From positions 96,001 to 160,000 of the forward strand of contig CAVYGN010000002.1 in assembly GCA_963768055.1 (NCBI GenBank): a stretch of DNA of 64,000 nucleotides, in the 5' to 3' direction. The notes below the pieces were generated by a model. That model was not told the DNA's origin. It made no database searches and saw nothing but the letters and a program-made list of their open reading frames with translations. Positions 3,995 to 55,101 of this stretch are shown piece after piece; position 1 is the first letter of the stretch; each line of letters begins with the position of its first letter. This DNA is from an uncultured Spirochaetota bacterium (GTDB taxonomy: Bacteria; Spirochaetota; Brevinematia; Brevinematales; JAOACQ01). The translations under genes were made by a program, and so were the position numbers.

Positions 3995-4003
3995 CCTCCA
4001 AAA

Positions 4004-4084
4004 TTAATCGTTTGTTTTAATCAAGTGATTAAATAATAGCATAAAATTTGCAGAAAGTCAATCGCATGATTAAATCATTTGATT
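4004..4084 (-). promoter_or_regulatory. Promoter of the SDR gene with repeated palindromic operators (likely TetR sites)
   Basis: TTGACT (4061-4056), 17 nt, TATTAT (4038-4033); palindrome TTTAATCA-AG-TGATTAAA at 4016-4033; more AATC-N4-GATT cores at 4060 and 4073, degenerate at 4006. Confidence 0.65.
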
Positions 4085-4670: not shown

Positions 4671-4678
4671 TAAGAGCC

Positions 4679-4945
4679 TCATCCGAACTTATAATGCTTC
4701 TTCACCGCTTTATTGATCTTCCATACGCATGAAAGGCCCTGGGGAAAGACCACGAAATCGCCCTGGCCGAAATGAACCGTATCGTTCCCGGCTTTAATAT
4801 CGACGTCGCCTTCGAGGATGTAGCAGCTCTCCTTTTCGTCGTACTGCCAGTCGAATTCGGACGCTTCCTTCGTCCAGACCGGCCATTCGAAGACGCCCAT
4901 CGTTTTCAGAATATCCTCGGAAATCTTTTTTACTTCTATAGGCAT
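4679..4945 (-). CDS. Cupin domain protein (DUF861/EutQ-like)
   Basis: WPVWTKE, FDWQYDEKESCYILEG, GDFVVFPQG; start ATG 4945 after AGGAGG. Confidence 0.85.
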   Translation of the reverse strand: MPIEVKKISEDILKTMGVFEWPVWTKEASEFDWQYDEKESCYILEGDVDIKAGNDTVHFGQGDFVVFPQGLSCVWKINKAVKKHYKFG

Positions 4946-5601: not shown

Positions 5602-5781
5602 GGCCTTAATCAGCCATAAAATCCCGATAAATTAAAATGTTGTATAATAAATAAAAAAGTTTTAGAATAGCAATGCAATTAGTGTCTAATAAAAAAGCGG
5701 GGCTGATAAGTATATGTTTAGGGGGTCGATGTTTTCAACGGGCGGTAGGCCCGGCGATTCATGGAGAGGAATGGGGGTATT

Positions 5782-9621: not shown

Positions 9622-12600
9622 TTAAGACTTGTAATCGACACACAATATGGCCCTGTCGTCATGCAAAGGCGCGCCGCCGCTGAATTCGTTTACATCCAAG
9701 AGGACACACTCGATATATTCCGCGGGAGTCTTTTCCGCACACTTAACTGTCATTTCAAGAAGCCTTTTTGTATCGTAAAGATCGCCATCTTTATTCATTG
9801 TTTCCACTATCCCGTCTGTGAACATCACCAGCCTGTCGCCCTTTTCAAGAAATACTTCACCGCACTTATATGTCGAATTCATTGTCAATCCGATATATCC
9901 GCTTCCTGTTTGAAGCCTCTCGATTTTACCCGTTTTCCTCCTGTAAAGTATGGCCGGCTGGTGAGCGGCGTTAGTAAACTCAAATCTTCCCGTGCCGACA
10001 TCCAGTATCCCGAAGAATACTGTGAGGTCATGCTCGCTCATCTCTCCAACAAATAAACAGATATCCTTATTGACGCTGTAGCAAACTTCGGCGGTCGTTT
10101 TGCCAGTAAGGGCGTCAGTGTTAAAGCTCGCTTTAGCCATTGCCGTCATCAGGGACGCCGACACTCCATGCCCGGATACGTCGGCCATCAGGAAACCGTA
10201 ACGGTTATCGTCGATCTTTATTATATCGTAAAGATCGCCCCCAAGGTCCTCCATCGCTAAGTATTTTCCCGATATATTCAGGTCGGCGCACTGCCTGAGG
10301 GCTTCCTCCTTAGGCAGGAAGCTTGCCTGGACCTTCTGTGCAATCTTCAGTTCGTCGAGCATGGCCTGGTTTTTAGCCGCCAGTTCTTTTGTCCTTTCGG
10401 CAACTTTGACCTCCAGGTTCCTGCTGTAATCCTCGAGCCGGCCGTAAAGCCCGGCGTTCTCAATGGAAATAGCGGCCTGCGAAGACAGTGTGGAAAGAAG
10501 CTCGATCCGCCTTTCAGGGAACGCATTCGTAATTAGATTGTTCTCTATATAGAGGATGGCCACAAGCCGTCCCTGATTTATTATAGCCGTGCAGAGAATG
10601 GATTTGGGCTTATAAGCTTTTATATATTCGTCTCCAGCCCATCTGCCGTCCGATGCGGCATCGTCGATTACGACGCTCTCCCTGCTATTGGAAACATATC
10701 TTACAATAGAAACACATATCTTATCTTCTTTTTCAATTGGTATGTTCTTCAATATATCAGGTTCGTTAACTGTCAATATTTCCGCTTTTGCCTGGATAAA
10801 AAGCTTCCCCCCTGAATCGGGCATTATCAAAAATCCTTTCTGGGCCCCCGCGTTCTCCATCAATATTTTTATTGTCTTGCTGAGCAGAGCTTCAAGGTTC
10901 ATCTCGCCGGCCATAATATTGGAAGACTTTAGAACTGTACTGATATCTAAGGTGCTGCCTCTAGTCGAACTGGAACCTGGTCTTTTACTGGTTGTCGATT
11001 CCGATATGGTCCCGGAATCGAGCCCGGCTTCTTTAACAATGTCGTAATCACTTTCAATGGACGTGATAATGGCAGGGTTCTTTATTCGTAAATCCTGCAA
11101 TTTACCTTTGGCTCCCCAGCTCTGGTAGGTAAGATATGCTTCTTTTAGGTAAAATTCAGAGATCTTCTCCAATCCTATCGATTGATAGAAGAGGCCGGTG
11201 TGTTCCAGAATCATTGCTTTTTCATGGGCAAAGCCGTTCTTTCCCGCTTCTTCCGCCGCCCTTTCGTAGAGCCTCATCGCTTCCTCGTTCTTCCCGAACC
11301 TCGCGATAAGTTCCGCTTCAATGAAAAGCTGCTTGTGCAGGCAGTTTTCTGGGCAGAGCATTGCCCATAAAGTCATCTTTTTCAGGATCGAATCAATCGT
11401 TTTTAAATTTTTCTTCCATAAGTTTTTATTTGCATCAGGATAATTGCCAAGAAGTGACAGGGCGTAGAAATAATAAGAATCTCTATAAAGGCTATTACCC
11501 ATAATGCCTTTAAGGGGCTTTTTTACCTCCAGCGCATAATTTAAAGAGCCTTCGTAATCGTTATACAAATAATGTATAAATTGCTTGAATACCAGGTAAA
11601 AAGCGTACGGATTCATATTCTTGACTTTCTTCCAATAGTCTATGATTGCCTTTTCATCGCAAGAAGGCCCTGAAAAAGAGTATTTGTCATCCTTTGCACC
11701 TGTAAGATTAAGGGCTAAATTCTGCCATAATTTTATTTCTTCAGCTATACGAGGCTGCTTCAATTTTGTGGACTGAATATCGAATAATTTCGCTTTTTCA
11801 CATATTGATTCCAGGTTTTCGCTTAATAAAATAGAAGTCATAAGATTAACATCAATGCTATAGGCAGCGTATTCAAGGTCACCCGTCTCCATACTCAATT
11901 TGTAACTTTCTTCAAATAAAGCAATAGTTTCGCGGAGCGGTTTAACCCAGTGGTACAATAGAAAACCTAGAGCAAAAGTAACTTTACTTTGTACAACTTT
12001 CGTATTTATTTTATTTTTAAACATATATGCAATTTCACCAAGCTGATAACCGCGTTTATAGTTTCCCAGTACCGATGAAACAATATATCCATAAGCCGAA
12101 TAGGCATAAGCGGAATACATGGAGTTTCCATTCCTTAGGGAAAAATTCAGCAATTTTAGTACAATTATTGGTAAATAATCAGCATCGAACATAAAAACCG
12201 GAGAAAGTATTTGTATGAAAAGCTGCGCTATGGCTATTTTTTTAGGCTCATCAAGTATGGGCAAGTTCATCAGAGCCTCGATACCCTTTTTCTTCGTCAG
12301 CTTCTTAACAAGGCTGTTGGCTTTCAGTAATTCATTAATTATATAAATAGGGTTCGCTTTCCCCGGCAATTTCATTCCAAGAAGAGACAAAGCCTTTTTA
12401 CCCTGCTTGATCGCCAATTCCATTTTATTATACGACGTATTCAAAGGTATTTGGATACTGTAAACTTTAACCTCGTCCATTATATCTTTCGCGTTTACCA
12501 TTACTTCATTGAAATGCTTTTCGGCTTTTTCATGTTCTCCAGTAAGATAATCAGCTTCTCCGGCTTCAGTATGAAAGTCTAAGGTTAGTTTATAATATGT

Positions 12601-14895
12601 TTTCCATGAATCTTCAGGAAGAAGTGATAATCCGGCATTCAAAAAATTACTTGCCGAATCATATGCTACCGACATTTTTGCCCTTATCCCCGCTTTTAAA
12701 TTAAGTTCTGCAAGATAGATCTTTTCTTCTTGAGTATTTATAATGCCTATAGCGTAATTTAATTGTGAAGCGACCTCAAAAATCCTTTCATCGACCTGCT
12801 CAGGTTTTAAATTATTGATGAGTGTTTTACCAATCACATAATGGTTTTTTTCTCTTTCTTTCTTATCAATTAAATTGTATACCGTTTCTTTTAACCGGTC
12901 ATGCGCGAACCTTATCTTTTGACCCGAGGCGATCAGGAAACCTTCGTTTACAGCCGGTTTTAAAGCCTCGTATGTTTCTTGTTCTGTCCTGCCTAAGACA
13001 AGGGATAATATATTGATATGAAAATCCGGACCTATGCAAGAAGCTGTCCTTATGAATTTCAAAGTATTTTCAGGAAGTTTTAAAATCTGCCCTGAAATAA
13101 ATTCCGCGACATTCCCGGTAATTTCAGCGTTTTTTATTTTATCGATATCCCATTTCCAGCCATTTCTGAATACTATCATCTCCTTGTCATAAAGGGTCTT
13201 GATCAGACCGTTCACAAAAAACGGGTTACCCCTTGTTTTTAGTTCTATTACATCGGCAAGTTCTCCAGTCGTTTTCACATCACAATACAAAGTATCACTC
13301 AAAAGTTTCGATATTTCACTGGAAGTGAGTTTTGTAAGTTTTAATTCTTCCAAATTAACATTATCCTTATTAATATTATCAATAAATTTCGTTAATTTGC
13401 TTTCCTTTCCAACTTCATTGTCCCTGTAAGCGCCCAGAAAAAGGAAGTGACTGAGACTATTATCAGTTAAAACTGCAGAAAGCAGCTTAAGGCTTGCATC
13501 GTCAGCCCACTCCATCCCATCCAGAAAAAATACGAGAGTCTGCTTTTTTCCGGCAAATACTCTTATAAAATTCTGAAAAACATAGTTGAACCTGTTTTCA
13601 GCTTCCGACGGGGCAAGATCTATAACCTTAGGCTGATCGCCTATGATAACTTTAAGCTGCGGCAGTTCATGTACGATAACATCTCCATTTTCCCCGACAC
13701 CTTCCATAATTCTCTTTTTCCATCCTTTAAGCTTTTCTTCACTTTCAGATAACAGGCGCCCTATTAAACCGTTAAAAGCGTCAATAATAGCGGAAAGCGG
13801 CATTGATATTCTGGCCTGGTCGAATTTTCCCTGAATGAAAAAACCATTTTTCTCGGCCACAGCCTTGCTCATTTCATTTACAAGGCTCGATTTTCCAATG
13901 CCGGGCTCTCCAGTTACAATAACTACTTTCTTTTCACCAGCGGCAGCCTCGTTTAATATTCCCTTTAGATAATTTAATTGCTTTTCCCGGCCGTAAAGTT
14001 TTTCCGGTATAGAGAGCTTTTCAGGAAGATCGTTTTCTCCGGGTAAAAAGTCAGAAATTTTTGATTTTTCTAACAACTCTTTTAAGCATCGCTCCAGATC
14101 CGTTTTTAGACCGTAAGAGCTTTGATATCTCTCTTCCGCATTTTTTGAAAGCAGTTTCATCACAATGCCTGATAATGCCCCGGGAATTTCATGGTTTATA
14201 TCGGACGGGTTTGCCGGTGTTCTGGCAATATGCGCATGCACGATTTCCATCGGATCTTCAGCTTCGAATGGGACTTTCCCCGTCAGCATCTGGTAAAATG
14301 TCACTCCGAGCGAATAATAGTCGGTTCTGTAATCGATTGAACGGTTCATCCTTCCGGTTTGTTCCGGTGATATATATAACAGTGTGCCTTCGAGCTGGTC
14401 ACGCGTTATTATTTCCTGAACTTCCCTTGAAAGTTGCGTCGATATACCGAAATCTATGATCTTGACTTCCGAAGTCTTCCTGTTTAAAAGTATATTATGC
14501 GGCTTTATGTCCTTGTGGATGATATTCTTTTTATGTATTTCCCCCAGAGCCTCTATTATCTTCAAACCGACAGGCAGAAATTCTTTTAACGCAAACTTTC
14601 CCTGCTTTAATATTTTATCAATAGATTCACCTCCGAAATCCTCTTCAACTATTATCAGGGCATTTTCAAGCTTCACGAGTTCGTATACTCCCAGAACTCC
14701 TTCCACGCCTCCAAGGCTTTTCATTACATTATATTCATATTCGAAGTTTTTAAGTTCTTCATGATTTGGATATGAGTTCTTCAGCGTCTTCATTACGACC
14801 TGCCTTTTATTTCGCAGGTCTTCGGCCCTGTAGATTATATTTTTTCTGCCTGAATAAATTTCATCCGATATTTTGTAATCTTTGGGATTGATCAT
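9622..14895 (-). CDS. Multidomain signalling protein: Ser/Thr kinase - AAA/STAND-type ATPase - TPR-like helices - GAF - SpoIIE/PP2C phosphatase
   Basis: HKDIKPHN, IDFG and YISPEQ kinase motifs; Walker A GEPGIGKS; GAF (SILCTAI..ILYIEN); PP2C motifs GGDLYD, ADVSGHG, FTDG and DDRA. Confidence 0.92.
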   Translation of the reverse strand: MINPKDYKISDEIYSGRKNIIYRAEDLRNKRQVVMKTLKNSYPNHEELKNFEYEYNVMKSLGGVEGVLGVYELVKLENALIIVEEDFGGESIDKILKQGKFALKEFLPVGLKIIEALGEIHKKNIIHKDIKPHNILLNRKTSEVKIIDFGISTQLSREVQEIITRDQLEGTLLYISPEQTGRMNRSIDYRTDYYSLGVTFYQMLTGKVPFEAEDPMEIVHAHIARTPANPSDINHEIPGALSGIVMKLLSKNAEERYQSSYGLKTDLERCLKELLEKSKISDFLPGENDLPEKLSIPEKLYGREKQLNYLKGILNEAAAGEKKVVIVTGEPGIGKSSLVNEMSKAVAEKNGFFIQGKFDQARISMPLSAIIDAFNGLIGRLLSESEEKLKGWKKRIMEGVGENGDVIVHELPQLKVIIGDQPKVIDLAPSEAENRFNYVFQNFIRVFAGKKQTLVFFLDGMEWADDASLKLLSAVLTDNSLSHFLFLGAYRDNEVGKESKLTKFIDNINKDNVNLEELKLTKLTSSEISKLLSDTLYCDVKTTGELADVIELKTRGNPFFVNGLIKTLYDKEMIVFRNGWKWDIDKIKNAEITGNVAEFISGQILKLPENTLKFIRTASCIGPDFHINILSLVLGRTEQETYEALKPAVNEGFLIASGQKIRFAHDRLKETVYNLIDKKEREKNHYVIGKTLINNLKPEQVDERIFEVASQLNYAIGIINTQEEKIYLAELNLKAGIRAKMSVAYDSASNFLNAGLSLLPEDSWKTYYKLTLDFHTEAGEADYLTGEHEKAEKHFNEVMVNAKDIMDEVKVYSIQIPLNTSYNKMELAIKQGKKALSLLGMKLPGKANPIYIINELLKANSLVKKLTKKKGIEALMNLPILDEPKKIAIAQLFIQILSPVFMFDADYLPIIVLKLLNFSLRNGNSMYSAYAYSAYGYIVSSVLGNYKRGYQLGEIAYMFKNKINTKVVQSKVTFALGFLLYHWVKPLRETIALFEESYKLSMETGDLEYAAYSIDVNLMTSILLSENLESICEKAKLFDIQSTKLKQPRIAEEIKLWQNLALNLTGAKDDKYSFSGPSCDEKAIIDYWKKVKNMNPYAFYLVFKQFIHYLYNDYEGSLNYALEVKKPLKGIMGNSLYRDSYYFYALSLLGNYPDANKNLWKKNLKTIDSILKKMTLWAMLCPENCLHKQLFIEAELIARFGKNEEAMRLYERAAEEAGKNGFAHEKAMILEHTGLFYQSIGLEKISEFYLKEAYLTYQSWGAKGKLQDLRIKNPAIITSIESDYDIVKEAGLDSGTISESTTSKRPGSSSTRGSTLDISTVLKSSNIMAGEMNLEALLSKTIKILMENAGAQKGFLIMPDSGGKLFIQAKAEILTVNEPDILKNIPIEKEDKICVSIVRYVSNSRESVVIDDAASDGRWAGDEYIKAYKPKSILCTAIINQGRLVAILYIENNLITNAFPERRIELLSTLSSQAAISIENAGLYGRLEDYSRNLEVKVAERTKELAAKNQAMLDELKIAQKVQASFLPKEEALRQCADLNISGKYLAMEDLGGDLYDIIKIDDNRYGFLMADVSGHGVSASLMTAMAKASFNTDALTGKTTAEVCYSVNKDICLFVGEMSEHDLTVFFGILDVGTGRFEFTNAAHQPAILYRRKTGKIERLQTGSGYIGLTMNSTYKCGEVFLEKGDRLVMFTDGIVETMNKDGDLYDTKRLLEMTVKCAEKTPAEYIECVLLDVNEFSGGAPLHDDRAILCVDYKS

Positions 14896-15139: not shown

Positions 15140-15826
15140 CTATATATTTTTATTCCATTGATTCCCAGTCGAAGCATCGTAATCAATCCTTTTAATCATA
15201 TTAAGATTTATCTCATTTAGAGAATTTATCAAGTACTTAACTCCAGTCTTAACCATATCTTTTTTCTGATATCCCCATGTATTTGATGAAGGCATTCCAA
15301 TAAAAGGCACATTTAACGACTTTGCAGCCTCGGCTACCATATTGACGTCGTCAATGAACAATGCCTCATTATATTTAAGATTATAAATTTCAGTAGTGAT
15401 TTCTTTTATTCCCGGTCTGAAATCATTTGTACAAACGTACATCGTAAAATATTCGGTATATTGCTTCATTTCTTTACGATAATATGTTTCGGGCAATCCT
15501 CCATAGCAAATTATCAATAAATTAAGCGATTCAATTAATTTTAGCAAATAATCTAAACCTTGATTGAATCCACTTCCATTTCTATTTATAAATTCTTCCC
15601 TTTCTTTAAAATAAATCTTAATTAATTCATCCGTACTAAGATCTAATTTAAATAAATTAATCAGATATTCGGCGGCTTCTTCTCTTTTTTGTGAAAATAT
15701 ATTTCTTTCAATATCCCTGTTATAAGTTCCCCCAAATTTTTCTACCAATAACTTTATTACCGGGCTGAAAGTGTCTTTCAGCAGGACTCCGTCTATATCG
15801 AAAGCAACGAGCTTGAGTGTCTTCAT
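15140..15826 (-). CDS. HAD-superfamily phosphatase
   Basis: AFDIDG motif I, LFIDD motif IV; start ATG 15826 after AAGGA. Confidence 0.82.
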   Translation of the reverse strand: MKTLKLVAFDIDGVLLKDTFSPVIKLLVEKFGGTYNRDIERNIFSQKREEAAEYLINLFKLDLSTDELIKIYFKEREEFINRNGSGFNQGLDYLLKLIESLNLLIICYGGLPETYYRKEMKQYTEYFTMYVCTNDFRPGIKEITTEIYNLKYNEALFIDDVNMVAEAAKSLNVPFIGMPSSNTWGYQKKDMVKTGVKYLINSLNEINLNMIKRIDYDASTGNQWNKNI

Positions 15827-15845
15827 AAATATTTCCTTGTAAAAA

Positions 15846-16613
15846 TCATCTCTGAATACCTGCAAGCGCTCCCCCATCAATAGGGATTATACAGCCTGTA
15901 ATATATGAGGAAGCCTCGGAACACAAAAACATTACAACTTGAGCTACCTCTTCTGTTGAGCCTTCTCTTTGTAAAGGTATCATTTTTTTTATTATTTTTT
16001 CGGAATCCGGACCTGAAAAATACCTTTCTTCGTTGATCGGAGTTTTTATCAAACCCGGACAAATAGCATTAATTCTTATTTTATACTTAGCAAAATCCAG
16101 AGCAAGGGCTTTTGTTAGGCCTATAGCTCCATGTTTCCCTGCACAATAATCCTCGACCAGATTTGTGACTGAAATACCCCAGCCGGAGGATGTATTTATA
16201 ATTGAGCCTCCCCCATTCTTGATCATATATTCAATTTCAAATTTCATACATAACCACAAACCCTTCAAATTAATGTCTATTGAATAATCCCATTCCTTCT
16301 CTGTTCTTTCAAGGATAGTTTTCCGTGATGAAGAAACACCGGCATTATTGAATGCATAGTCAAGCCTTCCGAAATGATCAACCGTTTTCGAAATAAAATT
16401 TGCGACATCGTCAATTTTTGATACATCACATTGAATAAACAGGCAATCACCACCCGCTTTTTTAATATCATTTGAAGTTTCGGCTCCCTTTTTTAAATCA
16501 CGCCCGCAAACCGAAACTTTGGCTCCTTCCTTTGCAAATGAAAAAGCGGCTGCCCTGCCGATGCCGGATGTTCCGCCGGTTATTGCAATAACTCGATCTT
16601 TGAATCTCAACAT
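15846..16613 (-). CDS. Classical SDR oxidoreductase (FabG/glucose-dehydrogenase-like)
   Basis: TGGTSGIG, FNNAG, NTSS, YCAGK, ICPG, DGG. Confidence 0.92.
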   Translation of the reverse strand: MLRFKDRVIAITGGTSGIGRAAAFSFAKEGAKVSVCGRDLKKGAETSNDIKKAGGDCLFIQCDVSKIDDVANFISKTVDHFGRLDYAFNNAGVSSSRKTILERTEKEWDYSIDINLKGLWLCMKFEIEYMIKNGGGSIINTSSGWGISVTNLVEDYCAGKHGAIGLTKALALDFAKYKIRINAICPGLIKTPINEERYFSGPDSEKIIKKMIPLQREGSTEEVAQVVMFLCSEASSYITGCIIPIDGGALAGIQR

Positions 16614-16672
16614 AGCATATCCTTTTTGATTTTAATAAATGTATTATGTGATAATTCCATTTTGAGGGCCGA

Positions 16673-17488
16673 TTATCTTGCGCCGGGGTAGACCCTGTAA
16701 ATCTTTTTTGACCTTTTATCTGTTAAAGCTTTAAATATTATTTTAGCGGCTGCATCCGGAGACATTCTTTTATCTTTAGACTTATTTTGCTCATTTATCA
16801 TTTTATCGAGTTGTTCTGAATAAAACTCCGCTTTATCAGGCTGCAATAGTCCGAAATGCTCTTTTAATTCTTTTACAGCTTTAATTTTTGCACTTGTTTT
16901 AACGCCGCGGCATTTTATTTTGATCACGGGTATTTTCCAGGGAGCCAGTTCATCATTCAAAGTATCAACTAAACAATTCAAAACGGCGTCGCACATATAG
17001 AGGCTTGAAACGAATGGGGAAGTCTTTTTAGAATCTGTTAAAATCCAGACGATTCTTCCATTATTTTCTTTAATCATAGGAAGAAATGTCTGAATCAATC
17101 CGATTGGCCCCAAAACTCTTGTTTCGATCTCTTCCCTTAATCTTTGAAGATTCATCAATTCAACAGGCGATAAGTATGCACCGCCGGCGTTATTAATCAC
17201 TGCGAATAATCCTTCCGGACCGAGTTTATTTAATTTCTCTGAGATAAAATCATGAGCCATAGCAATATGATCCTGATTTCTAAGATCAAACGGAAAAACC
17301 GGTATAAGATTTGGATTATTATAGGATATTAACATATCTGCATCGCTTTTTTTACGGACAGCAGCAAACACGTTAAAACCGTTATCGGCGAATAACAAAG
17401 CACAACTGAGGCCGATTCCCGAAGAAGTTCCTGTTATCAGAATACTTTTTCTTGGAAATGCCGCCTTTAATGAATTATCCCGTTTCAA
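16673..17488 (-). CDS. SDR-family protein, paralog of 3149..3994, atypical catalytic site
   Basis: TGTSSGIG, INNAGG; SLYMCD in place of YxxxK; TTG start. Confidence 0.8.
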   Translation of the reverse strand: MKRDNSLKAAFPRKSILITGTSSGIGLSCALLFADNGFNVFAAVRKKSDADMLISYNNPNLIPVFPFDLRNQDHIAMAHDFISEKLNKLGPEGLFAVINNAGGAYLSPVELMNLQRLREEIETRVLGPIGLIQTFLPMIKENNGRIVWILTDSKKTSPFVSSLYMCDAVLNCLVDTLNDELAPWKIPVIKIKCRGVKTSAKIKAVKELKEHFGLLQPDKAEFYSEQLDKMINEQNKSKDKRMSPDAAAKIIFKALTDKRSKKIYRVYPGAR

Positions 17489-17660
17489 TATTTATTTCCT
17501 TTAATTAATTCGGTAAATAAAATCGACAGAAGATGCAATAATATTTAAATTATGACTTAATAAAATAAATATTACAAAAATCATAGATTTGTGTTTTAAA
17601 ACTTATGCGAGGTGGGAGAAAACAGAGAGGCGATTTTTGATCATGATAATTTCGATAACC

Positions 17661-17688
17661 TTGACAGGATTATACTCTACTTTATAAT
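17661..17688 (+). promoter_or_regulatory. Consensus sigma70 promoter for the acyltransferase-HAD-acyltransferase operon
   Basis: TTGACA (17661-17666), 16 nt, TATAAT (17683-17688). Confidence 0.6.
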
Positions 17689-17851
17689 AGTATATATTAT
17701 TATTAAACTAATTTAGCTTTTTAAATAGAAAGTAATTGGATTTCAAAAGATCAAGTTTCCGGATATAAAAACAGCTATTATCTACCCTATTTTTATTAGA
17801 GGAATAAATTAAAATCAATCTCCAGCAATATTTTATCAATCGAGGAATATT

Positions 17852-19165
17852 ATGAAAAGGCCTTTGTCTTCTATGGAAAATATACTTTATTTAAGGAATA
17901 AAATAACTCCCTATAATTGTTTTGTAAGCATACATATCAAAGGTACTCTTTCCACTGATGTATTCGAACAAGCTCTTGAAATGACAAAAAAAAGGCACCA
18001 ATATTTATTTTATTACATTCTTGAAAACAATAATGTAGCCGAGTTTTTTTATGATGCCAAAGCAAGCATTCCGGTGAGAGAAGTTTATAATGCTGAAGAA
18101 AATAATTGGGTTGATGAATGCAATGCCGAATTAAATATACCTTTTGATTTGGCTAAGGCTCCATTAGCAAGAGCTGTTATTCTAAGGAAAAAAGATGGAG
18201 CCGATATAATTATTATTTTTTCTCACATAATCTGCGACGCCGTTTCTATGGTCTATTTTGCATATGATCTGCTGAAGGTAATAGATCATTTATATGAAAA
18301 CCAGAGTATTGATTTTCTCGATGAATTACCGGATATTTATCCGGAGGTGAAATATTTACCCGATATATCAAAACAATTACATTCATACGAGAAAATTGAA
18401 AAGACTATAGCATACAATAATATAAGTGATAATAATTACCCCATTGAAAAGCGCTCTACTAATATCATTACCTGCTGGCTGAATGAAACGCAAACCGAAT
18501 ATATTATTAGTCAATGTAAAAAAAGAAATATAACCGAAAATTCTCTAATTGCTGCCGCTTTAATAATAAATATGAAAAATTATATTTTCAATAAATATCA
18601 AATAAATAATAATTTTATGATAAAAACAGGCTCATCATTAAATGTAAGAAAATATTATTTATGTGATATTAATAATTCGCAATTCGGATGCTGGGATAGA
18701 AACGGATTTATTGATTTTAAAGTTGAGGAAATAACAAATCTTTGGGATTGTGCCTTGATATATGATGATCGTTTAAAGGAATTGATTGAAAAAGGCAAGC
18801 CATTTTCAATACAAAAAGAAAGAGTAAATGATTATTCAAATTATTCAATGTCTGATATTATAAAAAAAAATGAAAATTCAACTCCTTTTGTCGGATTAAT
18901 TAATCTTGGAAAATTTGAATTGAATGAATATTTCAATGGAAAGATAAAATTGGAAAAATTAAGTGTCGGAGGGCCGTTACATCTATATTGCAAAAACGAT
19001 TTGGGGTTTGGAATAGTTGATATAACTTATGATAATCGATTAAATTTAATATTTTATTATGTGAAGCCTACACGCACTCAAATTGAAGCGAAAATATTCG
19101 CCATGGATTTTTTAAAATTGATATTCGAAAACAATCAAGATTTACTAAAAGAAATTAATCTTTAA
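17852..19165 (+). CDS. Stand-alone condensation-domain / PapA5-like CoA-dependent acyltransferase
   Basis: RPLS..E start, KRH.YL, ELNIPFDL..APLAR, FSHIICDAVS (HxxxD), INLGK. Confidence 0.78.
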   Translation: MKRPLSSMENILYLRNKITPYNCFVSIHIKGTLSTDVFEQALEMTKKRHQYLFYYILENNNVAEFFYDAKASIPVREVYNAEENNWVDECNAELNIPFDLAKAPLARAVILRKKDGADIIIIFSHIICDAVSMVYFAYDLLKVIDHLYENQSIDFLDELPDIYPEVKYLPDISKQLHSYEKIEKTIAYNNISDNNYPIEKRSTNIITCWLNETQTEYIISQCKKRNITENSLIAAALIINMKNYIFNKYQINNNFMIKTGSSLNVRKYYLCDINNSQFGCWDRNGFIDFKVEEITNLWDCALIYDDRLKELIEKGKPFSIQKERVNDYSNYSMSDIIKKNENSTPFVGLINLGKFELNEYFNGKIKLEKLSVGGPLHLYCKNDLGFGIVDITYDNRLNLIFYYVKPTRTQIEAKIFAMDFLKLIFENNQDLLKEINL

Positions 19166-19197
19166 TAAAAAAATAATTTATATGGAAAATTATCGTT

Positions 19198-19848
19198 ATG
19201 GAAGGATTTTTAATTGATTTTGATGGAGTCATTCTAAAAAATTTCCCTGATCTGGTTTCTAAATTTATTTATAATTATATAAATAAGTTAACACCTATAA
19301 ATTATGAAACAATAATATCGTTTGTACGCCTTTTCATAAGTTTTCCGACTAAGGATTTTTTTACATTTCTTTTTAATTCATTGGGAATAGAAGAACACTT
19401 TGAAGATTTTATAAATAAAGTTTCTAATTTGGAAGATAACGGTGAAATAAAATTCGAAATCGATGATTATTTCAATACTTTCATAGATAAATGTAATAAC
19501 AACCAAATAAATTTTAAAATATTCTCTATGGCTGATACTAGGAGAATTTTAAAAACAATTCATAATATTAAACTGGAAGATATTTATTCTTTATGTGAAA
19601 ATTCCAAATCAAATACAAGGACATTTTCTCATCTACAAAAAGAATTAAAAATTGATTTAAATAAATGGGTTTTAATTGATGACGATCCTTTTTCATTGAG
19701 ATCAGGCAAATTAAATGGAATGTTTACGATTATGATGCAAAATAATGTTTTTGGCGAATCAGAATATTATTTATATAAAGATTATATCGATGTTAAAGTT
19801 AATTCTTTTAAAGAAGTTATTGATTATTATTTTAAAGGCTTTCGATGA
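19198..19848 (+). CDS. HAD-superfamily hydrolase
   Basis: LIDFDG motif I; LIDDD...GKLNGM motif IV. Confidence 0.72.
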   Translation: MEGFLIDFDGVILKNFPDLVSKFIYNYINKLTPINYETIISFVRLFISFPTKDFFTFLFNSLGIEEHFEDFINKVSNLEDNGEIKFEIDDYFNTFIDKCNNNQINFKIFSMADTRRILKTIHNIKLEDIYSLCENSKSNTRTFSHLQKELKIDLNKWVLIDDDPFSLRSGKLNGMFTIMMQNNVFGESEYYLYKDYIDVKVNSFKEVIDYYFKGFR

Positions 19849-19907
19849 ATATTAATGCCTGTATAATCAAATTAAGGCATGTGGCAAAATAATAATTGGA
19901 GAACAAT

Positions 19908-21203
19908 ATGCCGATTTTAGGCAGGGATTTGAATGAATTGGAAAACGCATGCTATCTGCAAAATAAAAGTGCGCCTTTTAACATTGTTATTTGCTTGCAC
20001 TTCAAAGGCTGTTTGGCGTATGAAACTTTTGCGGAAGCACTGGAAATAAACAGAGCCAGGCATTATTATTTATCCTGCTTTATAGAGGAAAAGGATGGGG
20101 TTCCAAAGTTCGTATATAATAATAATGTCAAAATTCCTATAAAAATTATGAATTCTGATTACGATAACCAATGGGTCAATGAATGTAAGGAACAGATGAA
20201 TTGCCCTTTTGATCTCGGGAAAGCTCCGCCTGCTAAAATAATCTGGATAATAAAAAATAATTCCTCTGATATAATTTTTAATTTTTCACATATAATATCT
20301 GATGGAATTTCCATGATGAATTTTATAATTGATTTATTTAAAACTCTGAATATTTTATTAAAAAAGGAAAAAATAACTATCAAGAAAGAAACCGAAATTT
20401 TTCCAGATATAAGGTATTTTCCTGATAATTTTGATAATTTGAATAAAAAAAAAGATGAATCCCTTATTATGGATTGGCTTGAAAAGGTAAAATCTTATAA
20501 GATTGAAAACAGGTCTTCCAATATAATAGTCTGCCAATTAAGTAAAGAAGAAACAAGGGAAATTATCAATAGATGCAAAAAAGAAGATACTACCATAAAT
20601 TCGATGCTTGCTGCCGCATTAATCTTAAGTATGAAAAATTATATCCTGCAAAAGTATGGTGTAACGGAGGATTTCCTGATTAATACCAGCTCGGGATTGA
20701 ATTTGAGGAAGTTTTATAAATGCGCCGTATCGGATCGTCAATTGGGGTGCTGGGCAGGAAAGGGTTATATTTTATACAATTCAAGAAATGTCGGGTCTTT
20801 ATGGGATTGCTCAAGGGACTATGAACAAAGATTATATCAAAATATCAATTCGGGCGCACCTTTCTTATATCTGAAAAAGAGTTTTGAAATTTTAAAGCGG
20901 TATCAAGCCGGTGAAAAAGCATTAAAAAAAGAAAATAATTTACCAAGTGTAATGCTTACAAATCTTGGTAAAGTAGATTATATCGATCTGTATAGTAACG
21001 AAACAAAATTAGAGAAAATCAGTTTTACTTCGCCGATGTACCGGAATTGGCCCAGTGATTTAGGTTTTGGAATTTGTGCTTTGACATACGATAATCAATT
21101 ATCGATGGTATTTCAATATATGAGTCCGGCATGGATCGATAGCGAAGCTAAAAAATATGTCAATAGCCTATTGAAGCTGATGGATATTAAGGCTAAAAAT
21201 TAG
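19908..21203 (+). CDS. Second condensation-domain / PapA5-like acyltransferase (paralog of 17852..19165)
   Basis: RARH.YL, PFDLGKAP, FSHIISDGIS (HxxxDG), TNLGK; shares QxGCW, LWDC and DLGFGI with the first copy; alternative TTG start 19896. Confidence 0.8.
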   Translation: MPILGRDLNELENACYLQNKSAPFNIVICLHFKGCLAYETFAEALEINRARHYYLSCFIEEKDGVPKFVYNNNVKIPIKIMNSDYDNQWVNECKEQMNCPFDLGKAPPAKIIWIIKNNSSDIIFNFSHIISDGISMMNFIIDLFKTLNILLKKEKITIKKETEIFPDIRYFPDNFDNLNKKKDESLIMDWLEKVKSYKIENRSSNIIVCQLSKEETREIINRCKKEDTTINSMLAAALILSMKNYILQKYGVTEDFLINTSSGLNLRKFYKCAVSDRQLGCWAGKGYILYNSRNVGSLWDCSRDYEQRLYQNINSGAPFLYLKKSFEILKRYQAGEKALKKENNLPSVMLTNLGKVDYIDLYSNETKLEKISFTSPMYRNWPSDLGFGICALTYDNQLSMVFQYMSPAWIDSEAKKYVNSLLKLMDIKAKN

Positions 21204-21241
21204 GGGACAGACTGAGAATTTAAAATAAATCTCTAAAATTA

Positions 21242-22516
21242 TCAACCCTTCTTCCTGTCAGTCCTGAGATGGCAGAAACGCTTGACCGCTTGTTTCAGGT
21301 TGTCTTTATCCGCTTTCACAATCCTGTTTATATGAAAACCTCCGAAAAAACTCTCGTTTTCATTCCGGCTCCATCTCTGGTGACATCCTCCCCTGACAAA
21401 ACCGATCACCGGGAAATACATGATGAAGTCGTAATCTTTTTGAGACGCTTCCTCGCCCACGAATTCGCCTATTTCTATGCAGAAACCATTTAATGAAATA
21501 TCTATCAATTTCCCGACATAGTAATCTTCCTTATCGGAACTCCATAGGGAAGTGGGACAAAGTTCGGGATCGACGGGGTAAAACCTGTGAGCGGGGTTTG
21601 TCATGTTCCTTCCCTCGCGGAACCTTGAAAAGAGCTTTTTACTCATAATACGGCCGTCTATATCGAATTCAGTGCAGACCACGCCTTTTTGAAAAATTGA
21701 AACGAGGGCTTTAGCCCATGTCCATTCGCCGTTCTTATCGTCAATTCTTAAAAAATCGGCTTTCATCCCGATGGGATAATGGAGGTCGATGTAATCGATA
21801 AACTTGGCATTGAAAGTATTTAAAGCGATCTGGGAACCCTTTAACGGTATGTTGCCGAAAACATGGCAGCAGGCTATGGTCATCTGCCTCGCCGCTTCCA
21901 TGACCATCATGCCGGGGACATGCTCCTGGTGATGCTCGAAAAAAAAGCTGTGCCGCATATCTACAAGCATTTCGGCGTAAAAAACATTTTCCTTTTTAAA
22001 AGCTTCAATGGATTCGAAAATTTCATAAAGGATCATTTTTTCATGATTGGTGAGGCTGATATCCTTTTTGCTCAGGATATCCTGGATGGCCCTGTCCTCG
22101 AACTCTGAAAGGCTTTTCTTTAACAGGTAGCAATTGTACTTCTCGTTTTTCCTGTAATAGTTCATTAGAAAATCATGGTCTTTTTTAGAAAGCTTCAGAT
22201 CATTTTCAAGAAAATCTGCCTCGATCGTATGCGGTATATTAAAGAGAATATAACATTCCCTGTTATGAATTATCGGATCGGAGGTATCCTGTGATTCTTC
22301 ATTAACGGGCAGCGGAGCGCCCGGTTTATGGAAAATATAGTATTCCAGGAATATCGCTAAGTCCGGGAGCGTTAAAGAGGGTATGATGATGTTTTCAACA
22401 GTTTCCTTTTCGATGCAGTATGGAATGCTCCTTCGGAGACCCCTTAAAAAGACATTCTCCGGGTATTTCTTATGGACATATTTTCTATCGACAGCCTTGT
22501 CCGCGCCATTACGCAT
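21242..22516 (-). CDS. AfsA/ScbA-related hotdog-domain protein with C-terminal PilZ-like domain
   Basis: N-terminal VDRKYVHK..PENVFL and HSFFFEHHQEHVPGMMVMEAARQ match AfsA-family motifs; C-terminal HRF...GKLIDISLNGFCI...RWSR...GFH fits PilZ (DxSxxG). Confidence 0.82.
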   Translation of the reverse strand: MRNGADKAVDRKYVHKKYPENVFLRGLRRSIPYCIEKETVENIIIPSLTLPDLAIFLEYYIFHKPGAPLPVNEESQDTSDPIIHNRECYILFNIPHTIEADFLENDLKLSKKDHDFLMNYYRKNEKYNCYLLKKSLSEFEDRAIQDILSKKDISLTNHEKMILYEIFESIEAFKKENVFYAEMLVDMRHSFFFEHHQEHVPGMMVMEAARQMTIACCHVFGNIPLKGSQIALNTFNAKFIDYIDLHYPIGMKADFLRIDDKNGEWTWAKALVSIFQKGVVCTEFDIDGRIMSKKLFSRFREGRNMTNPAHRFYPVDPELCPTSLWSSDKEDYYVGKLIDISLNGFCIEIGEFVGEEASQKDYDFIMYFPVIGFVRGGCHQRWSRNENESFFGGFHINRIVKADKDNLKQAVKRFCHLRTDRKKG

Positions 22517-22741: not shown

Positions 22742-23152
22742 ATGAAAAAAATCGTGATTTTAAGCTTTCTGCCCATAGTTTTGATCGCGGCGATGGCACT
22801 GGCGGCATCTAAAACTGCTGTTTACAACGGTTATTTATCCGACACTCTGTGCTATACTAACAAGGACAGCATAGCGTTCGACGGGGCGAACATGAAGACG
22901 AACCCTGAAAAACACACTGTAGTCTGCCTGAAAAACAAGTCTTGCGCGGCTTCGGGATACGGACTTTTAATCAAGAACGACAGCGGCACTTACGATTTTA
23001 CAAAATTCGACAATAACGGCAACAAGCAGATAAAAGCCTTGCTGAAATCGACAAAGAGAACAGACAACTATTATATTCAGGTTAAGGGCGTTATGGCTAA
23101 AAATATTATCAGAGTAGTGAAGATCAGCGAAGCCCAACCGGCCGGCAATTAA
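22742..23152 (+). CDS. Secreted hypothetical protein with Cys/His motif
   Basis: Signal peptide; GYLSDTLC, KHTVVCL, CAASGYG; strong RBS AAGGAGG. Confidence 0.7.
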   Translation: MKKIVILSFLPIVLIAAMALAASKTAVYNGYLSDTLCYTNKDSIAFDGANMKTNPEKHTVVCLKNKSCAASGYGLLIKNDSGTYDFTKFDNNGNKQIKALLKSTKRTDNYYIQVKGVMAKNIIRVVKISEAQPAGN

Positions 23153-23257: not shown

Positions 23258-25123
23258 ATTAAATTCAATTCCATCCAGACAAAAATACTTTCGTCTCTTT
23301 CAGCCCTTTTGGTTGCGGCAGTAGTATTGATAATCGTCTTTATAGTATATAATCAGCGTGCGAACCTCCTCGATGAAAATCATAAAAACGTTAAGGTAAA
23401 CCTGGAATCCCTCATCGTGTCGCTTAAAAACATGATGCTCACAGGAAACGCCCCCGTCCTGGTCAATACCATGAGAGACCTTTCAGGGGAAAAGCTTTAC
23501 AAAAAAATTAACATATTGAGAATGGACGGGACCATCGCCTTCAGCGACGATCAAACTATCAAGGCCGTTAACGCAAAATCGGGCCAGTCGTTTGAAATTT
23601 CCGAAAGGCTTGCCGACGACAGGAGCGATTCTGAAAAAGCAAAGGATTCTCAAAATATTATTTTCGTTTCAAACACACAGGGTTTCGTTACAAAATCAAA
23701 TCCAGGGCAGGGTGAAAACGATTATTACCTACCGATAAAATTCGAAAATTCCTGCGCCCTCTGCCATGAAAGCGGCCGGATTTTCCGCGGCGTGGCCCAT
23801 ATTACCCTTTCGACTATGGAAATTAACGATAAAATCACGGGGATGCGTAATATTCTTTCTTTGTTTTTTATCGGTGCCGGTGCGATACTGCTCATGTTTA
23901 TTTTCCTTCTTGTTAAAAGGCAGATAATTACACCGATCCTGAAAATCAGCGAAACGGCTGAAGAAGTCAGCAGGGGCGATTTCACCAGGCGGTTCGACCT
24001 TAAAAACAGGGACGAAATCGGCGACTTCGCGGCTAACCTGAACGATTTCGTGGGCAATCTGAACGGCGATATCCGGCAGGTTAAAAGCGCGTCCGAAAAA
24101 ATCAACAGCCTTTCAAACAATTCGATCCGGCTCATGGAGGGCAAGGTTAAAAACAATATAATGGAGATTGAATCCAGTATCAACCATATTGACGGACAGA
24201 CTGAAAGAACCACTACAGGCGTCAACGAACTTACCACCACAGTCGAGGAAATCGTACGCAACCTTCAAAGCATTATGGGCAGTATAAAGAACCAGGCCGT
24301 TGCCGTCGAGGAATCTTCAAGCTCTATCGAAGAAATAGTCAGGACTATCGAAAGGACAACCGATATGTCCACCCAAACCCGGAGCATAGCGGACGAACTC
24401 AATAAGGTCGCTAAGGATGGAGGCGAAGCTGTCAAAAATTCCGTATCGGCGATCAGGGAAGTATCCGAGTATTCGCAGCAGATCATCAAGATCCTGTCCC
24501 TCATCACAAACGTATCGAAGAATACTAACCTGCTGGCCATGAACGCTGCTATAGAGGCCGCGCATGCCGGAGACGCCGGAAAAGGTTTCGCCATTGTAGC
24601 TGAAGAGATACGTCATCTTTCAGAGGAAACCGGCAAAAATGCCCGCGAAATCGGCGAAGTGGTCAGTACAATTGTCTCCCGGATCGATGTTTCAGTGAAC
24701 CTGGCGGAGAAAGCCGGGATAGGACTCGAAACTATAATGGCTTATTCAAGCCAGAGTGCAAAAATCATAGAACAATTGAATGTAAGCATGGAAGAGCAGA
24801 ACCATGGGGCAAAGGAGATCCTGAAAGCGATCCAGTACCTCGTTCAAATCTCGGAGGAGGTTAAATTCTCTATCCAGGAACAAAACAAGGCGACGGACGA
24901 ATTCGCGGCGGCATTAAAAGAGATCTGCGACCTGACTTTTAAAAATAAAGACGATGTGAAAATGCATATAAATAACCTTGAGAGCCTCATAAAGGCGGTT
25001 GAAGAGATCAAAAACAATATAAGCGTAAATCAGGAGCTTGCAAAAAACCTCAAATCCCTGATGGACAAGTTCAATACCGGAGAAACAGAAAGTGAAAGAT
25101 CGGAAATGAGGCTTGTCGAGTAA
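23258..25123 (+). CDS. Methyl-accepting chemotaxis protein with CxxCH (heme c-type, Tll0287/DUF3365-like) sensor domain
   Basis: Two TMs, periplasmic CALCH, HAMP (RDEIG), signalling tip TNLLAMNAAIEAAHAGDAGKGFAIVAEEIR; start placed at ATT 23258 after AGGAGG (track start TTG 23309). Confidence 0.9.
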   Translation: MKFNSIQTKILSSLSALLVAAVVLIIVFIVYNQRANLLDENHKNVKVNLESLIVSLKNMMLTGNAPVLVNTMRDLSGEKLYKKINILRMDGTIAFSDDQTIKAVNAKSGQSFEISERLADDRSDSEKAKDSQNIIFVSNTQGFVTKSNPGQGENDYYLPIKFENSCALCHESGRIFRGVAHITLSTMEINDKITGMRNILSLFFIGAGAILLMFIFLLVKRQIITPILKISETAEEVSRGDFTRRFDLKNRDEIGDFAANLNDFVGNLNGDIRQVKSASEKINSLSNNSIRLMEGKVKNNIMEIESSINHIDGQTERTTTGVNELTTTVEEIVRNLQSIMGSIKNQAVAVEESSSSIEEIVRTIERTTDMSTQTRSIADELNKVAKDGGEAVKNSVSAIREVSEYSQQIIKILSLITNVSKNTNLLAMNAAIEAAHAGDAGKGFAIVAEEIRHLSEETGKNAREIGEVVSTIVSRIDVSVNLAEKAGIGLETIMAYSSQSAKIIEQLNVSMEEQNHGAKEILKAIQYLVQISEEVKFSIQEQNKATDEFAAALKEICDLTFKNKDDVKMHINNLESLIKAVEEIKNNISVNQELAKNLKSLMDKFNTGETESERSEMRLVE

Positions 25124-54977: not shown

Positions 54978-55050
<73 letters not shown>

Positions 55051-55067
55051 AATTTTAAAGTGTGAGT

Positions 55068-55096: not shown

Positions 55097-55101
55097 AAAT
55101 T

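Follow-up and report, generated by a model that had tools for sequence, protein, structure and literature searches.

The present study concerns a gene cluster built around the fusion of an AfsA-type hotdog domain to a PilZ-fold domain (AfsA-PilZ), which lies in a 64,000-nucleotide stretch of DNA from an uncultured bacterium (GenBank assembly GCA_963768055.1, contig CAVYGN010000002.1, positions 96,001 to 160,000). The whole stretch is referred to as the window, and coordinates are positions within it unless a locus or genome code precedes them. The closest named relatives are uncultured Spirochaetota and Brevinematales bacteria, in agreement with the probable spirochaete host proposed in an earlier reading of the bare sequence (the original prediction), and the host genome, of 3.69 Mb in 2 contigs, contains a single AfsA gene. 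Seven contiguous genes occupy 15140–22516. On the minus strand lie HAD1 (15140–15826, the longest open reading frame (ORF) reaching to 15880), encoding a HAD-superfamily phosphatase, SDR1 (15846–16613), encoding a FabG-like classical short-chain reductase that is a candidate ketoreductase, and SDR2 (16673–17488), encoding a second, divergent SDR. A divergent intergenic region with promoter-like sites (17489–17851; GC content 0.24) separates these from three plus-strand genes: C1 (17852–19165) and C2 (19896–21203), which encode a free-standing PapA5/WS-DGAT-like and a PapA5-like condensation-domain acyltransferase, respectively, and HAD2 (19198–19848), which encodes a member of a second HAD family. 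AfsA-PilZ itself (21242–22516, minus strand; 424 residues) converges with C2, the ends of the two genes being 38 bp apart. The minus strand carries AfsA-PilZ, SDR2, SDR1 and HAD1 and, beyond them, the gene of a giant kinase-STAND-GAF-PP2C protein of 1757 residues (9622–14895), with the C1-HAD2-C2 block interposed between AfsA-PilZ and SDR2 on the opposite strand.

All seven ORFs of the original prediction were confirmed with their coordinates and strands, as was its layout of an SDR-SDR-HAD group diverging from an acyltransferase-HAD-acyltransferase group and closed by a convergent AfsA-family gene, and Pfam backs each of its domain labels. The scores are 69.7 bits for AfsA (PF03756; cut-off 24 bits), 211 bits for adh_short_C2 in SDR1, 80.1 bits for adh_short in SDR2, 46.1 and 56.8 bits for Condensation in C1 and C2 (cut-off 30.6), 24.3 and 30.6 bits for AATase in C1 and C2, and 37.7 bits for PapA_C in C2 (cut-off 30); the HAD_2 scores of HAD1 (24.3 bits) and HAD2 (26.1 bits) are both marginal relative to the cut-off of 23.8. 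The HxxxD(G) motif that had been ascribed to both acyltransferases reads HIICD in C1 and HIISDG in C2. The catalytic DxD and DD motifs of HAD phosphatases take the form DIDGV and FIDD in HAD1 and DFDGV and IDDD in HAD2, and the likely start of HAD1 is the ATG at 15826 rather than the TTG at 15880, because homologue alignments begin near residue 19.

The PF03756 match of AfsA-PilZ is one stretch (residues 174–287), and all 12 aligned members of the family share the match. A profile of these 12 homologues was aligned by hhalign to repeat 2 only of Streptomyces ScbA/BarX (probability 97.7, 37% identity), with a block of the form ..FEH..(D/E)HVPGM..EAxRQ common to the two. Within the family the block FFFEH..EHVPGM..MEAxRQ is invariant across the 12 sequences, including residues H195, H199, P201, G202, E207, R210 and Q211, and the Glu and Arg of this block are essential in ScbA. 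An N-terminal VHK..NV motif is likewise common to AfsA-PilZ, ScbA and a 186-residue single-hotdog AfsA-related protein from Mycetohabitans. In the AlphaFold model of the 424-residue protein, with a mean predicted local distance difference test (pLDDT) value of 78.4, residues around 5–30 and 175–292 (the latter, the hotdog core, at 21641–21994, minus strand) close into one FabZ-like hotdog, which is comparable to FabZ 1u1z_A with a Z-score of 14.5 and a root-mean-square deviation of 2.8 over 136 aligned residues (VIA-align; model range 5–292) and to FabZ 6n3p_D with a TM-score of 0.63 (Foldseek). The hotdog is split by an insert of around 145 residues (residues 31–174; 21995–22426, minus strand) that is conserved across the family, with conserved columns at Y59, Y60, P95, H96, Y121 and Y130; the predicted structure of the insert matched no recognised fold or family, and neither the window protein nor the family members gave a Pfam match there. 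A search of solved-structure sequences with the family profile returned chance-level matches only (E ≥ 0.17). The repeat-2-only alignment together with the single FabZ-like hotdog of the model rules out a double hotdog of two tandem AfsA repeats, so that the AfsA identity given originally holds as a PF03756 match, whereas the protein, with its single repeat and C-terminal PilZ-fold domain, is not a canonical AfsA.

A homodimer of residues 1–295 was predicted with a score of 0.70, the best of three controls scoring 0.00; this mark is reached by 20 of 30 solved homomers and by one of 23 solved monomers. The contacts agreed fully between runs (100%), with a partner pLDDT of at least 78, and the predicted interface is formed by the invariant residues 15–18, 21, 190–195 and 202–210 and by the strand 231–239. 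As hotdog dimers are common among solved structures in the PDB, the prediction may show likeness only. Judged from its sequence, AfsA-PilZ is a candidate phosphorylated-butenolide synthase, this being a predicted activity.

The C-terminal part of the protein (residues 307–418; 21263–21598, minus strand) superimposes onto the PilZ structures of PP4397 (3kyf_A, Z 13.2), YcgR (5y6g_A, Z 12.3) and BcsA (4p00_A, Z 12.0) in VIA-align, as well as onto the PilZ domain of Alg44 (Z 10.2), with target-normalised TM-scores for PilZ matches of 0.65–0.71 in Foldseek, and 9 of the 12 family members match Pfam PilZ at E ≤ 1 (best 2.4e-5). PilZ domains bind cyclic di-GMP (c-di-GMP) through RxxxR and D/NxSxxG motifs. 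The second motif is conserved across the AfsA-PilZ family as D339-x-S341-x-x-G344, and the host genome contains 28 GGDEF matches, of which 27 exceed the cut-off. The PilZ domain suggests c-di-GMP control of synthesis, one half of the binding motif being degenerate. Our literature search found no publication pairing AfsA with a PilZ domain or with Leptospira, and none joining AfsA, butyrolactone and spirochaetes.

A word-based homologue search returned 12 proteins, which is far below the true size of the family: an exhaustive profile search gave 1436 representatives at E ≤ 1e-3 and 111 at E ≤ 1e-30. The best 150 representatives are mostly of 400–430 residues and match from end to end; other forms are proteins of around 300 residues without PilZ, single hotdogs of around 185 residues and two proteins of more than 1000 residues with a C-terminal match. 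Among the 401 genomes of the phylum, the AfsA-PilZ profile matched in 70 at E ≤ 1e-3 and in 52 at E ≤ 1e-54. Full-length relatives also occur in Proteobacteria, for example in Rhizobacter and Nevskia, the Nevskia homologue having the same hotdog-PilZ build (Pfam PilZ E 2.4e-4), and the closest protein relatives outside the phylum lie in proteobacterial clusters (ESM Atlas scores 0.97 and 0.96). These clusters, as seen in L098 (6669–13324), L111 (6699–13369) and L096 (8554–14020), have the order KASIII, asparagine-synthase-like protein, AfsA hotdog (around 360 residues), Old Yellow Enzyme, SDR and SDR, with a constant spacing from AfsA to the SDR in 13 proteobacterial loci, and the Nevskia cluster combines a lactonase-like gene with the full hotdog-PilZ protein.

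The linkage of the HAD genes to AfsA-type genes was followed at three levels, in the phylum, on plasmids and in metagenomes. In the phylum, HAD1 is present in nine of the 401 genomes (E ≤ 1e-10), all nine of which carry AfsA-PilZ, and in seven of the eight genomes other than that of the window it adjoins AfsA-PilZ or has nothing but HAD2 in between; in G006 HAD1 is broken and located elsewhere than AfsA-PilZ. HAD2 occurs in six of the 401 genomes, again always together with AfsA-PilZ, and in all five of the others lies within 1.5 kb of it. The two HADs show no BLASTP similarity, which rules them out as paralogues. Against a set of 72,556 plasmids HAD2 had no match, whereas all 21 matches of HAD1 are Streptomyces genes named 'HAD family phosphatase' (36–44% identity over the full length). 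Six of these Streptomyces plasmid regions were opened, and all six contain ScbA/BarX within two genes of the HAD as well as ScbR-type receptors, an SDR following directly after the HAD in five; in six further records of the 21, the coordinates place the HAD within about 2.5 kb of a ScbA/BarX match. The identity between HAD1 and the HAD of a Streptomyces ScbA-ScbR-HAD-SDR cluster reaches 44% (E 5e-76). MmfP was also considered as a member of the HAD1 family; its membership is not established, the 21 plasmid matches including no S. coelicolor record.

In the protein collection the HAD1 family has 342 members at E ≤ 1e-10, from sources including Streptomyces, Nocardiopsis, Streptococcus, Enterococcus, Clostridioides, Massilia and Tolumonas. 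A metagenome scan seeded with the HAD1 alignment yielded 65 loci, 44 of which contain an AfsA-type hotdog. In 36 of these the hotdog was recognised by a hidden Markov model (HMM) at E ≤ 1e-3, and in eight more, with a divergent hotdog, either by a weak Pfam AfsA score (three loci; 21.1–26.2 bits, cut-off 24) or by BLAST similarity to those three loci and to L170 (the remaining five). Wherever the HAD has 3 kb or more of sequence on each flank, which is the case at 26 loci, an AfsA-type hotdog is present (recognised in 19 by HMM and in seven by the weaker route), whereas in all 20 HAD-bearing negative loci the sequence ends early on at least one side. Seven positive loci have ORFs of more than 1300 residues, of megasynthase type, that contain the AfsA-type match and have the HAD directly downstream. 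The co-occurrence of the HAD1 family with afsA genes, which the original prediction had proposed as a check, is accordingly strong and extends across phyla, and this linkage in phylum, plasmids and metagenomes identifies HAD1 as a pathway-specific partner of AfsA-type enzymes across phyla.

The nearest solved relatives of HAD1 are small phosphatases of phospho-sugars and nucleotides. Named homologues include proteins of Streptococcus mutans, Enterococcus and Clostridioides difficile. In several actinomycete homologues the first nucleophile Asp is replaced by Asn (NIDGV), Asp being retained in spirochaete, Firmicutes and proteobacterial members, so that some members of the family may not be simple phosphatases. 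Four Firmicutes-looking metagenome loci (L170, L178, L181 and L193, with the HAD at around 6001–6680) share a cluster of a divergent AfsA-like hotdog, a major facilitator superfamily (MFS) transporter, a Zn-alcohol dehydrogenase, an Rrf2 regulator, the HAD1-family gene, a carboxymuconolactone-decarboxylase-like gene and a histidine phosphatase; this may be an unrecognised Firmicutes AfsA-type pathway.

The surroundings of AfsA-PilZ were compared in 34 distinct Spirochaetota loci (the window included, duplicates removed) by tblastn, ORF clustering and Pfam of the flanks, these loci being mutually related and not independent. Homologues of the 1757-residue kinase (30–60% identity over 1200–1780 residues) lie within 6.4 kb of AfsA-PilZ at 20 of the 34 loci and form its commonest conserved neighbour, in co-directional, divergent and convergent layouts. 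An SDR1 homologue is found at 13 loci, HAD1 at 12, HAD2 at 11, at least one HAD at 15 and SDR1 or any HAD at 22, a C-domain gene at two (the window and the same-genus locus L009), and none of kinase, SDR1 and HAD at seven, two of which (L087 and L088) are contigs of less than 4 kb. Grouped into families with arbitrary codes, the loci show AfsA, (HAD1), SDR1 and kinase co-directionally in f15 (L044, L045, L053, L054 and L072–L074), kinase and SDR1 transcribed divergently to AfsA and frequently accompanied by a LytB/IspH-like gene in f36 (L046–L048 and L057), a convergent arrangement with an RsbW-STAS fusion in f39 (L049 and L055), the order MCP (methyl-accepting chemotaxis protein), AfsA, SDR1 in f57 (L051 and L052), and AfsA, HAD, a PDC-like protein and a hybrid histidine kinase in the window's own family (L011–L014). 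Hybrid histidine kinases, MCP, a flagellar rod-binding gene and the RsbW-STAS fusion are further neighbours of AfsA-PilZ at other loci. As the neighbours persist through rearrangement, selection on their proximity can be argued. The cluster is real and not a chance association, and the span of 15140–22516 given originally, although its genes are all there, falls short of the functional unit, which reaches left to the kinase gene at 9622–14895.

The kinase protein combines Pkinase (141.7 bits), AAA_16 (122.6 bits), a TPR-like region, GAF (53.8 bits; residues around 1330–1480) and PP2C/SpoIIE (136.6 bits), and its GAF domain together with a PP2C of the partner-switching type makes it the foremost candidate for a sensor or controller of the product. 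In G003, a genome of the same genus, the gene has been duplicated in tandem (G003:C1:1360986–1371727); its paralogues number three in the genome of the window and four in G004. At L049 (8439–9410) and L055 (5035–6051), the fusion of an RsbW-like kinase (HATPase_c_2) with STAS either separates AfsA-PilZ from the giant PP2C-bearing kinase or adjoins them, a position that fits a partner-switching output. A LytB/IspH-like paralogue directly adjoins AfsA-PilZ at four loci (L011:8480–9520, L046:10920–11831, L048:10917–11822 and L057:8373–9305; 26–45 bits, Pfam cut-off 24.5) and could carry out a reductive step on an allylic phosphate intermediate.

SDR1 exceeds the cut-off of the NCBIfam model PRK07231 (223 bits versus 215) and has 37% identity to the SDR located after the HAD of a Streptomyces cluster. 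For SDR2, no counterpart was found in the same-genus cluster L009, and orthology to the second SDR of the proteobacterial clusters was ruled out, the Rossmann motif alone being aligned; SDR2 is lineage-specific.

Taking these results together, we lean, with little more than an even measure of confidence, towards the reading that the locus encodes a spirochaete counterpart to the pathway of AfsA-type phosphorylated butenolide synthases, with tailoring and control steps. This reading rests on which genes are present, on the domains and folds assigned to them, on conserved residues and on the linkage of the genes; from these we infer the chemistry. In the first step, as homology and conserved residues suggest, the AfsA-PilZ homodimer would transfer a β-ketoacyl group from a thioester of acyl carrier protein (ACP) or CoA to dihydroxyacetone phosphate (DHAP), and the resulting ester would cyclise to a phosphorylated 2-acyl-3-hydroxymethyl-butenolide. 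HAD1, to judge from its linkage across phyla, would then remove or process the phosphate, HAD2 being a putative second pathway-specific HAD with no assigned role, and SDR1 would reduce the keto group, as the ketoreductases of the Streptomyces butenolide and butyrolactone routes do. In a fourth and weakest step the low-GC C1-HAD2-C2 cassette and SDR2 would modify the product in the window's genus, with the two PapA5-like enzymes esterifying the hydroxyl or hydroxyls freed in steps 2 and 3. The PilZ domain would couple synthesis to c-di-GMP or to a protein partner, and the adjoining kinase-STAND-GAF-PP2C protein would sense or control the product in place of a TetR receptor. The product is probably a signal, and the pathway is a variant new relative to the Streptomyces butenolide and butyrolactone routes. 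The AfsA, HAD and SDR core, which resembles those routes, is the best-supported part of the original prediction; C1, C2 and SDR2 are lineage-specific.

The fourth step is where the strongest alternative arises. The cassette differs markedly in composition from its surroundings, with GC contents of 0.284, 0.233 and 0.323 for C1, HAD2 and C2, compared with 0.428 for AfsA-PilZ and 0.417 for the whole window. It also breaks, on the opposite strand, the AfsA-HAD1-SDR1-kinase order that is co-directional in other families, and it has its own strong promoter-like site, a 12/12 match to the sigma-70 consensus upstream of C1 (17661–17688, plus strand; a consensus match only). Close homologues of C2 among the 401 genomes are confined to G000 (two copies), G003 and G006, and distant C homologues (21–26% identity) occur mostly in genomes without full-length AfsA-PilZ; a word-based search gave six proteins for the C-domain family. 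The locus may thus consist of two units, an ancestral one of AfsA-PilZ, HAD1, SDR1 and kinase and an acquired lipid-ester cassette of C1-HAD2-C2, perhaps with SDR2, which merely came to lie inside the operon and acts on unrelated alcohols, for example in wax-ester or PapA5-type diester synthesis. We regard this as possible but unlikely, given that HAD2 is found only in genomes with AfsA-PilZ, beside AfsA-PilZ and even where there is no C gene, that C adjoins HAD2 in both members of the genus (the window and L009), and that in G006 the C homologue adjoins an SDR1 homologue (51% identity). Composition also fails to separate the two units cleanly, because HAD1 itself is low in GC (0.311). The claim that the seven genes form one conserved unit is nevertheless contradicted, the C-domain genes occurring at only two of the 34 loci and the GC of C1 and C2 falling far below that of the window.

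C1 and C2 are 40% identical, and the best solved relative of C2, PapA5 (8s6l_A, E 2.5e-5, residues 5–152), is very distant. Product O-acylation by C1 and C2 is plausible by analogy with such enzymes; as C1, C2 and SDR2 are lineage-specific and the C genes are both rare and low in GC, it stays an inference, and esterification is the weakest step of the proposed pathway because the C genes, in addition, have no carrier-protein partner.

Several further observations weigh against the butenolide pathway. In the cassette, these are the low GC of C1 and C2 and their presence at two of 34 loci, the location of the C homologue and AfsA on different contigs in G006, and the result of the Pfam and ORF survey, which found no carrier-protein, polyketide synthase (PKS) or acyl-activating ORF between 9622 and 25123. 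In the synthase, a single AfsA repeat stands in place of the two of canonical AfsA/ScbA, the score of 55.6 bits against the NCBIfam ScbA/BarX equivalog NF041195 is far below its cut-off of 200, about a third of the protein is an insert of no recognised function, and the literature consulted shows no assayed single-repeat AfsA-related protein. The window protein scores 12.3 bits against Pfam PilZ, under the cut-off of 22.5, and the RxxxR motif is degenerate, only R311 being invariant at that position (H-R-F-Y-P), with R298 and R300 conserved upstream. The accessory genes are not universal: neither SDR1 nor HAD is found in the flanks of 12 of the 34 loci, some of which are short contigs, and neither HAD is present in most AfsA-PilZ genomes (AfsA-PilZ in 52 of the 401 genomes, HAD1 in nine and HAD2 in six), which indicates either that a dedicated phosphatase is dispensable or that the product is different there. 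SDR1 is more similar to unrelated plasmid SDRs (44–46% identity) than to the SDR of the Streptomyces cluster, with the result that its orthology to the latter is an unproven candidate assignment. Finally, members of the kinase family occur in multiple copies and also in genomes that lack AfsA-PilZ (17 of 41 relatives versus 7 of 41), which rules out an exclusive co-occurrence of the two and makes the link from kinase to AfsA-PilZ suggestive only.

The signalling neighbours and the loci that lack SDR1 and HAD would also be accommodated if the hotdog-PilZ protein were a sensor or adaptor rather than a synthase, relaying acyl-thioester and/or c-di-GMP status to the adjoining kinase-GAF-PP2C protein, to hybrid kinases or to chemoreceptors while the HAD and SDR proteins are otherwise employed. 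Ligand-binding hotdog regulators are exemplified by FapR, which is among the structural matches of the model (Z 11.6 and 11.0), and the PilZ fusion, the persistence of signalling neighbours (kinase at 20 of 34 loci, hybrid histidine kinases, MCP, flagellar rod-binding gene and RsbW-STAS) and the 12 of 34 loci without nearby SDR1 or HAD are all consistent with such a role. We nevertheless consider it distinctly improbable. The active sites of hotdog enzymes form at the dimer interface, and H195, H199, E207 and R210, which AfsA-PilZ has in common with the catalytic repeat 2 of AfsA/ScbA, are invariant and lie at the predicted interface; the proteobacterial relatives are found in plainly biosynthetic clusters (KASIII, asparagine-synthase-like protein, Old Yellow Enzyme and two SDRs); and the cross-phylum linkage of HAD1 takes in PKS-terminal AfsA domains as well as Streptomyces ScbA clusters.

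The eukaryotic acyl-DHAP pathway provides the model for a further scheme, in which the hotdog enzyme, whose acyl specificity is unfixed, acylates DHAP with ordinary acyl-ACP, SDR1 reduces the product to lysophosphatidate, a HAD dephosphorylates it and C1 and C2 add two acyl groups to give a neutral lipid in place of a butenolide. The gene set maps one-to-one onto this glycerolipid route (acyl-DHAP-forming enzyme, reductase, phosphatases and two WS/DGAT- or PapA5-like acyltransferases), but it is the least probable of the alternatives and very doubtful, as the HAD1 family accompanies ScbR-flanked Streptomyces ScbA/BarX and PKS-terminal AfsA domains, for which PMC7756379 gives butenolide chemistry, as the acyltransferases are absent from 32 of the 34 loci, and as bulk lipid synthesis leaves the PilZ fusion and the signalling neighbourhood unexplained.

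If the butenolide reading is extended to all of its parts at once, the locus would produce a spirochaete butenolide hormone made by a c-di-GMP-gated synthase, perceived by the GAF domain of the giant kinase and O-acylated by PapA5-like enzymes, with HAD1 as a universal marker of AfsA chemistry. That all of these hold together is a tentative proposition, and we would not expect it to survive in full. Were it true, the product would be a cell-to-cell signal and the kinase-STAND-GAF-PP2C protein of around 1750–2150 residues its receptor, feeding a partner-switching cascade; in other lineages a hybrid histidine kinase or a chemoreceptor would act as receptor instead; acylation in the window's genus would yield a lipid-anchored or stored signal; and HAD1 would mark AfsA-type chemistry in many phyla, Firmicutes included.

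The other genes of the window near the cluster offer no TetR receptor of the actinomycete kind. The only TetR of the window (4083–4682) scores 32.1 bits against the ScbR model, relative to a cut-off of 150 and to 208.4 bits for a Streptomyces control, which rules it out as an ArpA-like receptor and bears out the absence of an adjoining receptor of this type noted originally. This non-ScbR TetR and the SDR with a DUF1776-like match that follows it (3149–4682, minus strand) are unrelated to the cluster as far as tested. On the other side, an MCP with HAMP and MCPsignal domains (23309–25123, plus strand) lies 0.8 kb from AfsA-PilZ, and in f57 (L051 and L052) AfsA is immediately preceded by a co-directional MCP gene. 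Between AfsA-PilZ and the MCP gene, 22742–23152 (plus strand) encodes a protein of 136 residues with a hydrophobic, by eye putatively signal-peptide-like N-terminus and no Pfam family; a homologue with 44% identity lies about 8 kb from the C-domain/SDR1 pair of G006 (L070:19521–19949). A 923-residue protein encoded at 5761–8532 (plus strand) has the unusual bacterial build of many ankyrin repeats with a weak C-terminal prolyl-oligopeptidase (S9) match (27.1 bits versus 22.6). At the gathering threshold Rfam gave two tRNAs only (54978–55174) and no riboswitch in the cluster.

In actinomycetes, AfsA-type signals belong to the textbook regulators, and whether spirochaetes use dedicated autoinducers is, to our knowledge, unsettled. 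The present locus is a concrete and testable candidate for AfsA-type signalling outside the actinomycetes: the activity of its synthase may be linked to c-di-GMP, its conserved signalling partner is not a TetR protein, and its accessory enzymes predict a new acylated product. The conserved AfsA-PilZ/SDR/kinase operon in a genus with genomes of around 4 Mb makes the question of spirochaete autoinducers approachable. The HAD1 family is in addition a handle for genome mining, as its presence signals AfsA-type chemistry also at loci whose hotdog has diverged too far to be recognised by Pfam.

Among known systems, the Streptomyces ScbA/BarX-HAD-SDR-ScbR clusters are the closest comparison. They have in common with the window the triad of AfsA-type synthase, HAD and SDR, the order of HAD then SDR (in five of the six opened regions and in several spirochaete loci) and HADs that are 36–44% identical to HAD1 over their full length. 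Whereas their synthase has two repeats, that of the window has one hotdog repeat, the 145-residue insert and PilZ, and in place of a TetR of the ScbR/ArpA type the window has the giant kinase and the PapA5-like acyltransferases. The plasmid clusters compared are annotated only as ScbA/BarX, HAD and SDR. According to PMC7756379, AfsA-family enzymes convert DHAP and β-ketothioesters to phosphorylated butenolides, from which later enzymes generate diverse products, the SAB butenolides of Streptomyces needing SabA (synthase), SabP (phosphatase) and SabD (ketoreductase); a putative triad of the SabA/SabP/SabD kind is recognised in the window by gene linkage. The chemistry of ScbA is summarised in PMC13454427, and PF03756 homologues are reported from 12 phyla, mostly without known products, in PMC8209734. 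In the MmfL/MmfP/MmfH and AhfaL/P/H systems, of which PMC7037778 describes the synthase/phosphatase pairs of the MmfL/MmfP type and the dephosphorylation of the butenolide phosphate, an AfsA-like synthase is likewise paired with a dedicated phosphatase; unlike the former, the window cluster has no flavoenzyme of the MmfH type.

The gladiostatin PKS, with its C-terminal AfsA-like PBS domain and the phosphatases GdsA and GdsG, resembles the seven metagenome megasynthase ORFs that have a HAD1-family gene next to them, whereas the window enzyme is free-standing and fused to PilZ, and the window holds no PKS. PMC7756379 describes the condensation of DHAP with 3-ketothioesters in vitro by the PKS-terminal AfsA-like domain, as well as putative phosphatases encoded nearby. 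The proteobacterial AfsA-related clusters share the hotdog-PilZ build in Nevskia and have an SDR1-like gene one to two genes downstream in 13 loci, but they carry KASIII and an ene-reductase, and none of the three that were annotated with Pfam has HAD1, the giant kinase or a C-domain gene; the role of the proteobacterial 'butyrolactone' cluster, Pseudoalteromonas included, is left undetermined in PMC13433383. C1 and C2 share with PapA5, the phthiocerol dimycocerosyl transferase, and WS/DGAT-type enzymes the HxxxD(G) motif and the Condensation, AATase and, in C2, PapA_C matches, yet the similarity is very distant and, unlike for PapA5, the window has no PKS or carrier-protein partner near C1 and C2. 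Finally, the cellulose synthase BcsA and Alg44 offer parallels for the joining of a PilZ fold to a biosynthetic enzyme, a putative one in the case of the window, although the PilZ domain of the window protein does not retain the RxxxR half of the c-di-GMP site.

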